Shown: positions 60,146 through 64,000, counted from the first letter of the stretch. The stretch is DNA of 64,000 nucleotides from Thermoplasmata archaeon (GCA_021817245.1 JAKAVQ010000010.1:2722-66721); one strand, 5' to 3'. The notes: generated by a model not told the origin, from the letters alone. Program-made: numbers and translations.

Positions 60146-61210
60146 ATGGTCGGGGTCGGGCATCCGGCCACTCTCTACGAACCGCTCGGGGGCGGTAAGG
60201 TCCGGTGCACTGCGTGTGCCCGGTACTGCACGATCCCGAGCGGCTCGCACGGGTTCTGCTTCGTCCGCAAGAACGTGAACGGGCGGCTCGTCCTCCTGAG
60301 CTACGGGAGGGCCTCCGCGGTCCAGGTCGACCCGATCGAGAAGAAGCCGCTAGCGCACTTCCGCCCGGGCGCCCGGGTCTACTCGATCGGCACCGTCGGC
60401 TGCAACTGGCGCTGCCAGTACTGCCAGAACGCCGAGATCTCCCAGGAGCGGGAGGTGGTCGGCCGGCCGCTCTCTCCTTCGGCCGCGGTCCGGGGCGCAC
60501 TCGGGTACGGATGCGAGGGCGTCACGTTCACGTACAACGAGCCGACGATCTTCGCCGAGTACGCGCTCGACGTGATGCGCGAAGCGTGCGCGGCCGGACT
60601 GTTCTCGACCTTCGTGACGAACGGCTACATGACGCCCGAGGCGGTCGAGGCGCTCGGGCCTCACCTGGACGCGGTGAGCGTCGACTTCAAGGGGAGCGGG
60701 GAAGCCGGGTTCCTGCGCAAGTACATCGCCGCGAAAGGCCCCGAGCCGATCTTCGATTCTGCCGTCGGGCTGAAGAGACGGGGGGTCCACGTGGAGGTCA
60801 CCGACCTGATCGTCCCCGATGTCGGGGACTCGGTCGCGGCGACGCGAACGCTCGCGCGCTTCGTCGTCGACGAGCTCGGCGCGTCCACGCCGTTCCATCT
60901 CCTCAGGTTCCACCCCGACTACAAGATGATGGGGTTTCCGTCGACACCGGTCGCGACCCTCGAGAGACTGCACGCGGTGGCGGCGGGAGAGGGGCTCGAG
61001 TACGTCTACCTCGGGAACGTCTGGGGGCACCCGCTCGAGCACACGTACTGCCCGAAGTGCGGCGACATCGCGGTCGAGCGCTACGGCTTCACGATCCGTT
61101 CGTGGAACCTCGACGCGGAGAACCGCTGCCGCCTCTGCGGTCACCGCCTACCGTTCGTCGGGCGCTTGTCCGAGCGGTACGAGCCGACGTTCGCGACCCC
61201 TGTGGCCTAG
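60146..61210 (+). CDS. amrS: AmmeMemoRadiSam-type radical SAM enzyme (PFL-activase-like)
   Basis: CTACARYC..GFCFVR, DPIEKKPL, GCNWRCQYCQN, FTYNEP, RFHPDYK, YVYLGNV, TYCPKC. Confidence 0.9.
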   Translation: MVGVGHPATLYEPLGGGKVRCTACARYCTIPSGSHGFCFVRKNVNGRLVLLSYGRASAVQVDPIEKKPLAHFRPGARVYSIGTVGCNWRCQYCQNAEISQEREVVGRPLSPSAAVRGALGYGCEGVTFTYNEPTIFAEYALDVMREACAAGLFSTFVTNGYMTPEAVEALGPHLDAVSVDFKGSGEAGFLRKYIAAKGPEPIFDSAVGLKRRGVHVEVTDLIVPDVGDSVAATRTLARFVVDELGASTPFHLLRFHPDYKMMGFPSTPVATLERLHAVAAGEGLEYVYLGNVWGHPLEHTYCPKCGDIAVERYGFTIRSWNLDAENRCRLCGHRLPFVGRLSERYEPTFATPVA

Positions 61211-62018
61211 CCTCGTCGGTCCGGGTCCGGCGCGATGGGGGCCGGCGGACGACCGCCTCGACGACGAGGTGAAGCGGTATCTCCGCGATGAGCGGTCCCT
61301 GCGGGCTGTTCGCGACGAGCTCGGGAGCGGGCGTCGGCTCCTCGATCCTCGCGATCGCGAGCCCCGCGTCCCGCAGGATCCGAGAGTAGGTCGAGAGGGT
61401 CCGGTGGTAGCTGCGCGTGTACCCGACTTCGGACGGGGAGATCGGCCACGGTACGCGGACCGAGCGCTCGTCGCGATAGAGCCGGACCTTCCGCCAGATC
61501 TGGTCGCGAAAGACCCCGTCCCCCTGCCGCGACCGCTCCACGATCCAGGCGGACCGGTCGTCGAGGTCGAAGCACGGGTGGGCCACGGAGAAGACGAACC
61601 GTCCTACGGCGTCGAGGACCCGCGCCACCTCTCGAACCGCGCCCGCCGCGTCCTCGATATCGAGGAGCGCCATGTTCGCCACGACGAGGTCGAACGACCG
61701 GTCCGCGATCCCCGAGAGGCGGCTCGCGTCCCGTCGGAGGAATCGGGCGCCTGTCCGCGAGGCCGCTTCCCGTCGTCGGGCGTGAGCCAGCGACCGGGAC
61801 GAGAGGTCGACCCCCAGGGCGACCGCCGCGCCCTCGCGCGCCCAGCGTCGCGTCAGGTAGCCGTTCCCGCACGCGAGGTCGAGCACACGGAGCCCCCGCA
61901 CGGGCCCGACGACGTCGAGCAGGGTCGGGTCGATGAGCGCTCGATGCCAGAGGTCGCCGTCCTCCCCCATCCGCTCGTCGCGCCACCGCGCCATCGCGTC
62001 CCAACCTTCGCGCGTCAT
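61089..62018 (-). CDS. Class I SAM-dependent methyltransferase
   Basis: VLDLACGNGY, GVDLS, SFDLVVANMAL, GRFVFSVAHPCF, YHRTLSTY. The C-terminal tail overlaps the amrS 3' end. Confidence 0.88.
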   Translation of the reverse strand: MTREGWDAMARWRDERMGEDGDLWHRALIDPTLLDVVGPVRGLRVLDLACGNGYLTRRWAREGAAVALGVDLSSRSLAHARRREAASRTGARFLRRDASRLSGIADRSFDLVVANMALLDIEDAAGAVREVARVLDAVGRFVFSVAHPCFDLDDRSAWIVERSRQGDGVFRDQIWRKVRLYRDERSVRVPWPISPSEVGYTRSYHRTLSTYSRILRDAGLAIARIEEPTPAPELVANSPQGPLIAEIPLHLVVEAVVRRPPSRRTRTDEARPQGSRTSARTARTSARRTVGGDRRGGSGSPRRGSTNGS

Positions 62019-62138
62019 CGCTGCCGCCGAACGGGCGGGCCCCAAAGTCGTTTCGCCGCCCCGTTCGGCGAAACCGTTTGCCCTCCCTTCACCTTCATAG
62101 TCCCCGGCGGCTCGGTCCGACGGTCGTCCGGAGCGCAC

Positions 62139-62879
62139 GTGACCCAGCGTTCACTTTCAAAGCCCTCCCGTTCCCCGCGGCCGGTCCGAGCTCCGGCACC
62201 TCCCCTCATCGAGGTCGAGGTCGACCTCGACCGTTCGGACGACCGCCTCCGGACGCTGCTCGTCGGGCACGGCGTCCGCTCGCGCCTCACGGCGTGCCGC
62301 CCCCTCGGCTCGGGCCGCAAGGCGCGCCTCGTGCGCTGGGTCGACCTCGAGGCTCCTCCGGTCGACCTCGATCGATTGGTCGAGGCGCTCGAAGCCTCGG
62401 CCGACCCCCACTCGGTGTCGGTCTCCACCGACGGGAGCGACCGGGCCATGCTGCGGCTCGCGCAGGCCCTACCGGAGTTCTGCGCGGCGGTCTTCACATC
62501 GGGGGGCGCGTGCGTGACCTGCCCGATGCTCCACGGCGCGGACGGGGACGGCTCGACCCGGGCCCGGGTCCTCGTGCCCCGGAACGGCGAAGCGAGCCGG
62601 TTCGCCCGCGAGCTCGCCCGCCGCCGCCTCGGACCGGCCTCGATCCAGCGCACGGGGCCGTACCGGCCGCGGGCGAAGCTGACCGCCCGACAGGAGGCGG
62701 CGCTCCGCGCAGCGTTCGAGCTCGGGTTCTTCGCCTATCCCCGGCGCTCGGATCTCTCCGCGGTCGCCCGCCGGCTCGGCGTCGGCCGCTCGGCTACTCT
62801 CGAGCTCCTGCGCCGGGCAATATCCGAGCTCGCGGCCCGTCGGTACGACTCGCCGGATCCCACGCGGGACCGGCTTTAG
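62139..62879 (+). CDS. HTH_10 (bacterio-opsin activator-like) transcriptional regulator
   Basis: C-terminal LTARQEAALRAAFELGFFAYPRRSDLSAVARRLGVGRSATLELLRRA; N-terminal domain with CVTC. Confidence 0.85.
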   Translation: MTQRSLSKPSRSPRPVRAPAPPLIEVEVDLDRSDDRLRTLLVGHGVRSRLTACRPLGSGRKARLVRWVDLEAPPVDLDRLVEALEASADPHSVSVSTDGSDRAMLRLAQALPEFCAAVFTSGGACVTCPMLHGADGDGSTRARVLVPRNGEASRFARELARRRLGPASIQRTGPYRPRAKLTARQEAALRAAFELGFFAYPRRSDLSAVARRLGVGRSATLELLRRAISELAARRYDSPDPTRDRL

Positions 62880-63265
62880 GCGCCGAGGACGGACGCCCGC
62901 ATCGGAGCGGTCTCCGCCGGAGTCTCGGACGGGAGCCCGGGCGCGCGAGGGGCGGAGGCGCGGGATGGGGGAAGCGACAGGGTCGCCCGGGCGGCGCCGG
63001 ATTTCGCGCTCTCCATCAGCTCCCGGAAGAGACGGTCGACCAACTCGGGGGGCACGCCGGATTCGAGGGCCCACCGGCGCGCCCGGTCGACCACCCGGCG
63101 CTCCTGGGCCGTGTCGCTGACGTCGCCCCCCAAGCTCGTGCGGGTCCGGATGGCGCGTTGGGCGACCCTCAGGCGCGTCGCGACGAGCCGGATCAGGAGG
63201 TGGTCCAACCGGGCGATCTCCTCGCGCAGCTCGTCGAGGGACGGGGGGTACGCGGCCGAAGGCAT
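62876..63265 (-). CDS. Stand-alone AroQ chorismate mutase
   Basis: SLDELREEIARLDHLLIRLVATRLRVAQRAIRTR..VSDTAQERRVV..LFRELMESAK. Probable ATG at 63265; the track ORF is over-extended. Confidence 0.82.
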   Translation of the reverse strand: MPSAAYPPSLDELREEIARLDHLLIRLVATRLRVAQRAIRTRTSLGGDVSDTAQERRVVDRARRWALESGVPPELVDRLFRELMESAKSGAARATLSLPPSRASAPRAPGLPSETPAETAPMRASVLGA

Positions 63266-63303
63266 TGCGGAGAAAGGTAGGGTCCGGCACGGAAGTCTCC
63301 TCA

Positions 63304-63319
63304 CCCGCACCGGTGCGGG
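63304..63319. promoter_or_regulatory. Perfect 16-bp palindrome in the chorismate mutase/U32 divergent spacer
   Basis: CCCGCACCGGTGCGGG is self-complementary, and the flanking CTCCT/AGGAG extend the stem with a 2-nt bulge. Confidence 0.55.
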
Positions 63320-63355
63320 AGGAGGCTCTTGTTTGGCCTCCGTTGATAGCGGAAG

Positions 63356-64000
63356 ATGGAACTTGTCCTCGCCTCGAACTTCGACGACCGCCTCGTGCGG
63401 GACACCGCCGACCTCCCGATCGCTGCGTTCTTCGGCGGCTATCCGATCCAGCTGACCGGCGCGGGGCGACCTCCCCGGATCCTCCCCGCGATCGGTCCCG
63501 AGCGGTTCCGGGAGCACGTGGCGGCGATCCACCGTCACGGTCGCGACTTCTACGCCACGCTCAACAGCAACGACCTCGGACTGCACGAGTACCGACCCGG
63601 CTACATCGATGCGTTCCTCTCCGAGGTCGGCCACCTCCTCGACCTCGGCGTCGACGGACTCGTCATCGCGCTCCCGGCGCTTATCGAGGCCGTCCGCACG
63701 GCGTGGCCCGACGTGCCGATCTCCGTCTCGACGTTCGCGCGCATCCGGACGGTGACCCAGGCCGAGTACTTCCTCAAGCTCGGCGCTCGCACGATCATCC
63801 TCGAAGAGGCGAACCGGGACTTCAAGCTCATCCGCGGCCTCGTGCGCCTCGGGGCCGAGGTCGAGATCCTCGTGAACCAGACCTGCCTCCCCTCGTGTCC
63901 GTACCGCGGCCACCACCTGAACACGAGCTCGCTCGCGTCGCAGCCCGGCGCCGCCTGTCCGGCGTTCGAGTACCCGATCCTCGAGTGTGGGGTGGAGTAC
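63356..64000 (+). CDS. Peptidase U32-family Fe-S protein (prephenate-dependent hydroxylase-like), truncated by the window edge
   Basis: Not in the track. Manual translation: MELVLASNFDD..GAGRP..FYATLNS..DLGVDGLVIA..ISVSTFARI..LGARTIILEEANRDFKLI..VEILVNQTCLPSCPYRGHH..LEC. Confidence 0.85.
   Translation, partial: MELVLASNFDDRLVRDTADLPIAAFFGGYPIQLTGAGRPPRILPAIGPERFREHVAAIHRHGRDFYATLNSNDLGLHEYRPGYIDAFLSEVGHLLDLGVDGLVIALPALIEAVRTAWPDVPISVSTFARIRTVTQAEYFLKLGARTIILEEANRDFKLIRGLVRLGAEVEILVNQTCLPSCPYRGHHLNTSSLASQPGAACPAFEYPILECGVEY

Follow-up and report, generated by a model that had tools for sequence, protein, structure and literature searches.

Locus and gene arrangement

This study deals with a stretch of 64,000 nucleotides (nt), here called the window (G000:C16:2722-66721), from the draft genome of a Thermoplasmata archaeon. 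The draft comprises 2.31 Mb with approximately 70% G+C; its completeness is 92.9% and its contamination 4%. Near the end of the window three genes lie together. The first encodes an HTH_10 transcription regulator of 246 amino acids (aa) (62139-62879, plus strand; Pfam HTH_10, PF04967, 56.4 bits, cut-off 23.1). It is followed by a gene for a stand-alone AroQ-type chorismate mutase (CM) of 129 aa (62876-63265, minus strand; Pfam CM_2, PF01817) and by a U32-family gene (63356-64000, plus strand), recognized as an open reading frame (ORF) with a match to Pfam Peptidase_U32, of which the first 215 of 396 aa are encoded in the window. As read from the sequence, a divergent control region of 90 nt (63266-63355) separates the start codons of the CM and U32 genes. 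It contains a perfect 16-bp palindrome, CCCGCACCGGTGCGGG (63304-63319), which is a candidate operator for the HTH_10 regulator. The genome comparisons described below indicate that the CM and U32 genes belong together as a unit and that their pairing is not due to chance.

An earlier note on this DNA had described the U32 gene as an ORF running off the window from an ATG at 63356 on the plus strand. ORF and contig sequence agree with this: the gene (L001:3356-4546) continues past the window and ends at a position equivalent to 64546. The motifs ISVSTFA and LVNQTCLPSCP..H..C are present in its translation as reported, and the head-to-head spacing, given as about 90 bp, is exactly 90 nt. Furthermore, the HTH_10 regulator and the S-adenosylmethionine (SAM) methyltransferase listed beside the CM were both confirmed by Pfam.

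Conservation of the gene pair

For a first survey, 61 related genomes were searched with the U32 protein and the CM_2 model. The U32 gene showed a patchy distribution, being present in the genome studied here (G000) and in 16 of 36 genomes of the same genus. The 24 genomes of other genera gave a single weak U32 match (28% identity, E 6.4e-6). Each of the 17 U32-bearing genomes has a CM_2 match on the opposite strand, at a distance of about 130 nt from the start of the U32 gene. A wider survey covered 401 genomes of the class. Here, of 59 other genomes of the same family, 33 from six genera carried close U32 homologues, and homologues with 35-38% identity turned up in 4 of the 43 genomes of a single further family. 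No U32 homologue was detected in the remaining 298 genomes of this survey.

A rescan with a hidden Markov model built from the linked CMs found a divergent CM in 39 of 42 U32 loci, and in 40 of 43 assessable loci after two loci had been added. One of the three misses, L167, begins at the end of a contig and has no upstream sequence. One genome, G019 with locus L016, is marked as unpublished; when it is omitted, the counts are 16/16 for the U32-bearing genomes of the first survey and 38/41 for the rescanned loci. The conservation of the CM-U32 neighbourhood in Thermoplasmata, for which the earlier note had proposed a check, was thus observed. As to the loci lacking a divergent CM, L157 is the second U32 copy of one genome, whose other copy (L182) keeps the CM. 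L175 and L183 belong to two genomes of genus g21, and L175 has a PCNA-like gene upstream of the U32 gene. Exactly one unlinked CM is kept in all four g21 genomes; the co-occurrence of CM and U32 survives the loss of adjacency.

In comparisons over 20 kb, just three genes were common to all loci, those for regulator, CM and U32. With tblastn the regulator was found in 11 of 11 loci and the CM in 10 of 11, the CM of L060 being recovered by the Pfam model. Three relatives keep the wider synteny of the window, with genes for Orc1, LipA, the CCA enzyme and a radical SAM enzyme. Other relatives carry the trio in different surroundings. For two genomes (G025 with L020/L024 and G010 with L021/L023) the U32 match is split over two frames, with CM and regulator intact; a frameshift or an assembly error is possible.

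The adjacency could also be meaningless, with the CM as a housekeeping mutase and the U32 protein as a protease or an unrelated enzyme that happens to share the promoter region. We regard this as very improbable. The divergent arrangement recurs across different flanking contexts, and in the 61 genomes a small stand-alone CM beside a U32 gene was seen in U32-bearing genomes only. The 20 U32-less genomes of the same genus gave three CM matches, namely G006 (a fusion of CM and prephenate dehydrogenase), G026 and G030 (under cut-off). Both genes share a unique palindrome, and no prephenate-consuming enzyme was found in the genome. The points that would fit such a reading are that the linked CM is the only CM of this genome and that databases name such proteins 'collagenase-like PrtC protease' or 'U32 family peptidase'.

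The U32 protein

The match to Peptidase_U32 (PF01136) reached 40.6 bits (cut-off 22.4) and covers only profile positions 8-66 of 233. It is the sole U32 match in the 2.31-Mb genome. An AlphaFold2 model built on 22 homologues (mean pLDDT 82.8, pTM 0.84) gave as its best solved-structure match the U32 protein Mk0906 (5d88), with E 2.9e-8 and TM 0.70 on the target. The modelled protein thus has the predicted U32 TIM-barrel fold. Seven cysteines, C177, C181, C211, C333, C338, C341 and C344, occur without exception in 22 close homologues (63-84% identity) and 40 distant ones (~30% identity). Their spacing is C177-X3-C181-X29-C211, followed by C333-X4-C338-X2-C341-X2-C344 at the C-terminus. With these invariant residues, binding of a [4Fe-4S] cluster is plausible. 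The canonical iron-sulfur motif of U32 proteins is CX6CX15CX3/4C (PMC6747719; PMC11574389). Hence, of the earlier description, the U32 identity is supported by Pfam and by the fold, while the full canonical cysteine set is replaced by seven other invariant cysteines. In a profile comparison C177 was aligned with C169 of UbiU, a demonstrated cluster ligand.

Profile comparison with the E. coli proteins covered the N-terminal 140-150 residues and gave probabilities of 97.5% for TrhP and 82.8% for UbiU. The NCBIfam model of TrhP (NF011996) was matched at residues 51-150 only, with 30 bits against a cut-off of 534 (E 2.2e-7). No match at E <= 0.01 was found for the models of UbiU (NF047963) and UbiV (NF047965, NF011991). 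As controls, E. coli UbiU scored 559.9 bits, UbiV 363-440 and TrhP 875. A second Pfam domain, including the DUF3656 of RlhA, was not detected in the U32 protein at E <= 0.01. A quick tree (maximum likelihood, 54 rows) has the four E. coli U32 enzymes and all 50 seven-cysteine proteins on opposite sides of a long branch (SH-aLRT 97). Beyond the N-terminal half the tree carries little weight, since the E. coli sequences lack homology to the others in that part. The U32 proteins of high-GC Thermoplasmata form a clade (100), and their sister group contains low-GC Thermoplasmata. The loci of this low-GC sister clade carry a gene with metallo-beta-lactamase fold and a radical SAM gene, which provided no lead.

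Since equivalog scores, cysteine motif and accessory domains all differ from those of UbiU, UbiV, TrhP and RlhA, the protein is assigned to a distinct U32 subfamily. This subfamily is deep and mostly bacterial. The closeness to RlhA, TrhP, UbiU and UbiV suggested before does not hold, as the protein lies outside their branch in the tree proposed for this question.

The differences can be described for each known system. With UbiU-UbiV of E. coli the protein shares the U32 TIM-barrel family and the aligned position C177/C169. On both sides the genes are accessory and patchily distributed, and some distant seven-cysteine members sit in UbiD-UbiA-UbiE clusters beside two canonical U32 genes. In contrast to the heterodimer pair UbiU-UbiV, the cassette has a single U32 gene, no UbiT/SCP2 partner was seen beside it, and the motif CX6CX16CX38C is replaced by C-X3-C-X29-C plus C-X4-C-X2-C-X2-C. 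Its own CM and regulator and the archaeal host are further differences. TrhP (ho5U34 in tRNA) and RlhA (ho5C2501 in 23S rRNA) belong to the same U32 family, and TrhP is the best profile match. For RlhA, excerpts of PMC5727448 describe a DUF3656 domain after the U32 domain, whereas the protein studied here has no extra C-terminal Pfam domain. A genetic requirement for prephenate is given for RlhA and TrhP in excerpts of PMC5727448 and PMC6599085; the protein studied here may share it. In E. coli the housekeeping enzymes PheA and TyrA, and not a dedicated CM, provide the prephenate.

These similarities raise the question of an RNA hydroxylase of the TrhP/RlhA kind (ho5U in tRNA, ho5C in rRNA) with its own prephenate supply. 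The TrhP model is the only useful NCBIfam match, the profile match is stronger with TrhP than with UbiU, and two of the three characterized U32 functions target RNA. The score is far below the cut-off, however, and DUF3656 or another second domain is missing. The protein lies outside the branch of all four E. coli enzymes, and its nearest well-annotated homologues beyond Thermoplasmata are located in a UbiD-UbiA-UbiE cluster. A patchy accessory distribution and a dedicated regulator would also be unusual for RNA modification. We therefore consider an RNA hydroxylase unlikely. The isoelectric point was uninformative as a hint to an RNA substrate.

Distant seven-cysteine homologues

A profile-free exhaustive search gave 1417 cluster representatives at E <= 0.001 and at least 244 at E <= 1e-30. 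The 80 named loci belong mostly to anaerobic bacteria (Bacillota, Dehalococcoidia, Syntrophaceae and other Thermodesulfobacteriota, Nitrospirota), with few archaea. A gene for a B12-binding radical SAM protein (~500 aa, DUF4070) was found in 32 of the 80 loci, usually immediately downstream of the seven-cysteine U32 gene. The two enzymes form a conserved pair, which could be matched to no described pathway. Examples are L097, L114, L118, L121, L140 and L144; in some loci CCG/LUD-domain iron-sulfur proteins and UbiE follow. Other recurrent neighbours were AMP-dependent ligases (20 loci), UbiE-type methyltransferases (7) and fatty-acid synthesis genes.

At L075, Pfam identified a cluster of UbiD, UbiA, AP_endonuc_2, a GFO/IDH/MocA oxidoreductase, U32, a U32-like protein, the seven-cysteine U32, UbiE and an Rce1-like protein. 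L073 and L079, from the same lineage of metagenome-assembled genomes (MAGs), share most of these genes according to clustering. This cluster is a candidate for an O2-independent biosynthetic pathway of the quinone type with three U32 paralogues. These gene contexts tend to favour lipophilic aromatic molecules as substrates of the family; they were observed in clades other than that of the Thermoplasmata.

A stand-alone CM_2 gene within 2.5-4.5 kb of the seven-cysteine U32 gene was detected at four of the 80 distant loci, three deltaproteobacterial and one nanoarchaeal. As an independent recurrence of the pairing this is suggestive only. The nanoarchaeal locus L096 (a Nanoarchaeota MAG) has two tandem U32 genes after a radical SAM/SPASM gene, and its stand-alone CM_2 gene is situated 4.2 kb upstream.

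Chorismate mutase

The CM gene starts with the ATG at 63265. The protein has a helical CM_2 domain at residues ~10-90, followed by a Pro/Ala-rich tail. The CM_2 match spans profile positions 1-76 of 80 with 56.2 bits (gathering score 27), and it is the sole CM_2 match in the genome. Among 23 U32-linked CMs, five residues never vary (R14, D21, R31, Q54 and E55) and three more are almost invariant (D51, R61 and K88). Active-site residues of E. coli CM are R11, R28, K39, D48, E52, S84 and Q88. The first five of these have conserved counterparts, namely R14, R31, R42 (Arg/Lys in the family), D51 and E55. The positions of S84 and Q88 lack such conservation; the nearly invariant K88 of the present CM is located one turn earlier.

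The best solved-structure matches were mycobacterial intracellular CMs. All NCBIfam equivalogs for CM were matched under their cut-offs, the best being TIGR01791 (archaeal CM) with 49.4 bits versus 66.95. Like the mycobacterial CM of the Rv0948c type, the protein has a CM_2 domain above cut-off in a helical core of ~90 residues, with Arg, Arg, Arg/Lys, Asp and Glu conserved at aligned positions. Unlike it, the protein bears a variable Pro/Ala-rich C-terminal tail. The gene-level partner of the mycobacterial CM is DAHP synthase, while here it is the U32 enzyme. The CMs of L057, L058, L062, L162, L165 and L168 possess a conserved C-terminal extension, ..VVTVLL..(~20 aa)..L(V/I)(A/S/P)VP.., which the CM of the window does not have. 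This extension could be a docking tail.

Prephenate supply and possible users

In accordance with the earlier note, aromatic amino acid genes are not located beside the CM; the shikimate and trp genes are on another contig, C9. There, chorismate synthase lies together with an aroD-aroE fusion, aspartate-semialdehyde dehydrogenase, aspartate kinase and trpE, D, F, B and A. From this arrangement, chorismate is visibly made for tryptophan. The genome has one chorismate-binding enzyme only, which is part of the trp operon. Neither prephenate dehydratase (PDT) nor prephenate dehydrogenase (PDH) was found in the genome by searches that matched 14 of 14 control genomes. An AroH-type CM (CM_1) was not found in this genome either. 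PDT was detected in none of 36 genomes of the same genus and none of 10 of the same order.

Thus, the question whether a separate housekeeping CM exists in this genome is answered in the negative: the linked CM is the only CM_2, and no AroH-type was found. The earlier note had also considered that this might be the only CM and serve phenylalanine and tyrosine synthesis. The first part is true; the second part is not supported, as PDT and PDH were not found. Several relatives have a second CM. The two that were inspected are CM-PDH fusions, that is, housekeeping tyrosine enzymes separate from the U32-linked CM. The PDH_N matches in relatives are weak (28.6-33.8 bits), just over the cut-off of 26.5 bits.

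Prephenate might also have another role, as substrate of the U32 enzyme and not as oxygen donor. CM and U32 would then form a route from chorismate to phenylpyruvate or another prephenate-derived product, either replacing PDT in phenylalanine synthesis or starting a small prephenate-derived metabolite. Apart from the regulator the cassette encodes CM and U32 as its only enzymes, and the reaction proposed for U32 enzymes itself gives phenylpyruvate (excerpts of PMC10990095). The absence of PDT from this genome and from all genomes of the genus and order named above, together with the absence of PDH here, points in the same direction. Yet the cassette is patchy, with 16 of 36 genomes in the genus and 33 of 59 in the family; genomes lacking it are also without PDT, so the cassette does not track the PDT gap. 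The distant seven-cysteine members are found near UbiD/UbiA/UbiE, B12-radical SAM and fatty-acid genes, not near amino acid genes. Seven cysteines and a dedicated regulator would, moreover, exceed the needs of a simple dehydratase-decarboxylase. The probability of this route is judged to be low.

With regard to quinones, MqnA/D were not found in this genome. A UbiA-UbiD pair is present (G000:C24:163026-166120; L200:7026-10119) with a second HTH_10 gene in divergent orientation, and so is a full-length UbiE. UbiD occurs in 31 of 36 genomes of the same genus, with or without U32. Because UbiD is present regardless of U32, the co-occurrence neither supports nor excludes a quinone substrate.

The HTH_10 regulator

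The GTG at 62139 is the only start codon that fits the regulator gene, which ends at 62879. The regulator and CM genes are in convergent orientation, with an overlap of 4 nt at their stop codons. A BAT domain (PF15915) in the protein remained under the cut-off (16.7 versus 25.8 bits). Four cysteines are present, C53, C115, C125 and C128, with the spacing C-X61-C-X9-C-X2-C. Across 34 aligned homologues all four are invariant, one of them in 33 of 34. The regulator gene flanks the CM in 34 of 42 U32 loci, 19 times co-directional with the CM and 15 times convergent. Only flanks of 1.5 kb were counted, and some of the misses are truncated loci. The regulator had been mentioned before as a possibly unrelated neighbour, which is wrong in view of this count.

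Similar to archaeal regulators of the Bat/HTH_10 type, the protein has a C-terminal HTH_10 domain and a weakly BAT-like middle region. Its nearest homologues in a plasmid collection are haloarchaeal HTH_10 proteins with 34% identity. Such homologues lie divergent from operons which they presumably control, e.g. paaABCDE in the case of the inspected Haloferax protein. In that protein a cysteine is aligned at the first of the four positions only; it is just in the Thermoplasmata set that all four cysteines are invariant. NarO and DmsR are haloarchaeal four-cysteine regulators of anaerobic respiration; no sequence link between them and the cassette regulator was found. Because the four cysteines are conserved in the homologues, it is reasonable to regard the protein as a putative cysteine-based sensor of redox state, oxygen or metal.

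The palindrome in the divergent control region

The 160 nt upstream of the U32 start were aligned for 34 of 42 loci; the unpublished locus, truncated or split loci and the three exceptions were left out. The alignment contains one dominant conserved block, CC[G/T][C/T]ACCGGT[G/A][C/A]GG. In every one of the 34 loci the block begins with CC and ends with GG, and the ACCGGT core is exact in 32. In several lineages both half-sites have changed in concert (CCGC/GCGG 18, CCGT/ACGG 3, CCTC/GAGG 2, CCTT/AAGG 1). In all 34 loci the centre of the palindrome lies 42-48 nt upstream of the U32 start; in the window it is 44 nt from the ATG of U32 and ~46 nt from that of CM. The palindrome is the most conserved block of the spacer, with a mean information content of 1.47 bits in its 14 columns versus 0.33 bits in the other spacer columns. 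Further peaks are found at -19/-18 and +15/+17 from the centre. The CM-less second U32 copy L157 retains the palindrome at the same distance; in the g21 loci it was not found.

Two short conserved blocks containing A/T are each situated ~28 nt upstream of a start codon, one for CM and one for U32. They probably represent TATA-like elements of two divergent promoters with short leaders or none. Read in this way, they would place the palindrome just upstream of both promoters.

The 14-mer of the palindrome has one match in the window (0.08 expected) and occurs once in the 2.31-Mb genome. Two other palindrome-like matches in the genome are both degenerate, and one of them lies inside an ORF. The near-copy CCGCACCGGTACGG (G000:C26:125853-125866) is intergenic; it follows a DsrE-like gene, and 117 nt separate its centre from a TusA-like gene further downstream. 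Because its spacing differs from that of the cassette, it is probably a chance occurrence. Both degenerate copies were taken as chance and rejected as a guide to a regulon.

Instead of serving the HTH_10 protein as an operator on the DNA, the palindrome might act as an RNA hairpin in a 5' leader, for instance as an attenuator or as the site of another factor. Folded as RNA, it forms a stem of 6 bp capped by a 4-nt loop, and this hairpin is part of a longer helix. Several of the changes in the half-sites compensate each other. The half-sites are asymmetric in 10 of 34 loci, though, and as RNA the 90-nt spacer has an ordinary fold (z = -1.48; 14 of 200 shuffled sequences fold at least as well). 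No Rfam match was obtained in 61000-64000. If the A/T blocks are TATA boxes, the palindrome would lie upstream of both transcription starts, and a DNA-binding regulator is conserved beside it. We consider an RNA element improbable.

Proposed function of the cassette

Excerpts of PMC10990095 describe prephenate as oxygen donor for UbiU-UbiV in a proposed reaction that yields phenylpyruvate; the evidence that U32 proteins take oxygen from prephenate comes from genetic and isotope-labelling work in E. coli and B. subtilis. According to the same excerpts, direct hydroxylase activity of U32 proteins has not been demonstrated and in vitro assays are awaited, and most U32 subfamilies are uncharacterized. 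On balance, we favour the view that the three genes encode a co-regulated, prephenate-fed, O2-independent iron-sulfur hydroxylase cassette. The CM would turn chorismate, otherwise made for tryptophan, into prephenate for the U32 enzyme. The latter, a putative cysteine-ligated iron-sulfur TIM-barrel enzyme, would use prephenate as oxygen donor for a hydroxylation independent of O2 and would release phenylpyruvate, as proposed for UbiU-UbiV. The four-cysteine HTH_10 protein would bind the palindrome as a dimer and switch both genes together, the signal being probably the redox, oxygen or metal state.

Several observations weigh against this proposal. Concerning the U32 protein, the canonical motif CX6CX15CX3/4C is not present in the alignment of its homologues, and of its cysteines only the first, C177, is aligned with UbiU. 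Pfam and profile comparisons reach only the N-terminal third to half of the protein. It is far from all characterized U32 enzymes, with 30 bits on the TrhP model versus 139-190 bits for cross-matches among the models of the E. coli proteins. The hydroxylase role suggested for this family derives from genomic comparison. The CM has no counterpart of Gln88 (numbering of the E. coli enzyme). CM adjacency is absent in three of 43 loci (L157, L175 and L183) and in all four loci of the low-GC sister clade; a nearby CM was seen in only four of 80 distant homologues. The related genomes are not independent observations. Finally, with a draft of 92.9% completeness, PDT or PDH could lie in the missing part.

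As to the substrate of the proposed hydroxylase, a small aromatic or prenylated molecule of the quinone type is our tentative candidate. An RNA base appears clearly less probable than that, and the remaining, larger share of the probability falls to something else. A more far-reaching idea is rather doubtful. It holds that the seven-cysteine U32 proteins might be a third class of prephenate-dependent anaerobic hydroxylases acting on lipophilic aromatics such as quinone precursors. The cassette would then be a redox-switched 'oxygen-donor cassette' of high-GC Thermoplasmata, in which a cysteine sensor switches the enzyme and its prephenate source from one palindrome. The CM may dock on the U32 protein and pass the labile prephenate to it, and the phenylpyruvate released may feed phenylalanine synthesis in these archaea, for which no PDT was found.

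In the U32 literature covered here (excerpts of PMC10990095, PMC5727448 and PMC6599085, which do not extend to the supplementary neighbourhood data), the pairing of CM and U32 genes is not mentioned. New is, in our opinion, a distinct U32 subfamily that has, in archaea, a putative private oxygen-donor supply and its own regulator. A private CM appears to be wired to a U32 enzyme in organisms without other visible use of prephenate. The cassette offers purely genomic, independent support that the link between prephenate and U32 extends to a very distant subfamily and to archaea; so far, O2-independent U32 hydroxylation chemistry has been studied only in bacteria. With the seven invariant cysteines a new signature is defined. 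As a minimal two-enzyme system the cassette could be used to reconstitute U32 chemistry, and the four-cysteine HTH_10 protein with its palindrome provides a testable regulatory hypothesis.

Neighbouring genes and occurrence

A class I SAM methyltransferase gene (61089-62018, minus strand; Methyltransf_11/25) lies upstream of the regulator gene. Its best NCBIfam match is a MenG/UbiE subfamily with 55 bits, far under the cut-off. No tblastn match (E <= 1e-5) to it was found in the 15-20 kb loci of 11 relatives. Its participation in the module, which the earlier note had put forward tentatively, was not borne out, and the gene was rejected as a component. The gene was seen in this genome only; it resembles a local insertion and is unrelated to the cassette. 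The ORF as listed overlaps the 3' end of the preceding radical SAM ORF by ~120 nt. This preceding gene encodes an enzyme of the AmmeMemoRadiSam type (60146-61210, plus strand; TIGR04337 324 bits, cut-off 220) and is syntenic in three relatives, where it directly adjoins the regulator gene.

Just beyond the end of the window, a gene for a polytopic membrane protein of 483 aa (L001:4789-6240, minus strand) faces the U32 gene in convergent orientation. The protein matched no family in Pfam or NCBIfam. Beside the cassette it is kept in none of the loci of 11 relatives, and it was rejected as a part of the module.

Most of the regulator-CM-U32 stretch (L001:2100-4600) was found in three public DNA runs of one study, with 0.86-0.96 of the sampled words. 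These runs are labelled as mine drainage metagenome. They may include the source sample and are thus not independent evidence for the habitat.

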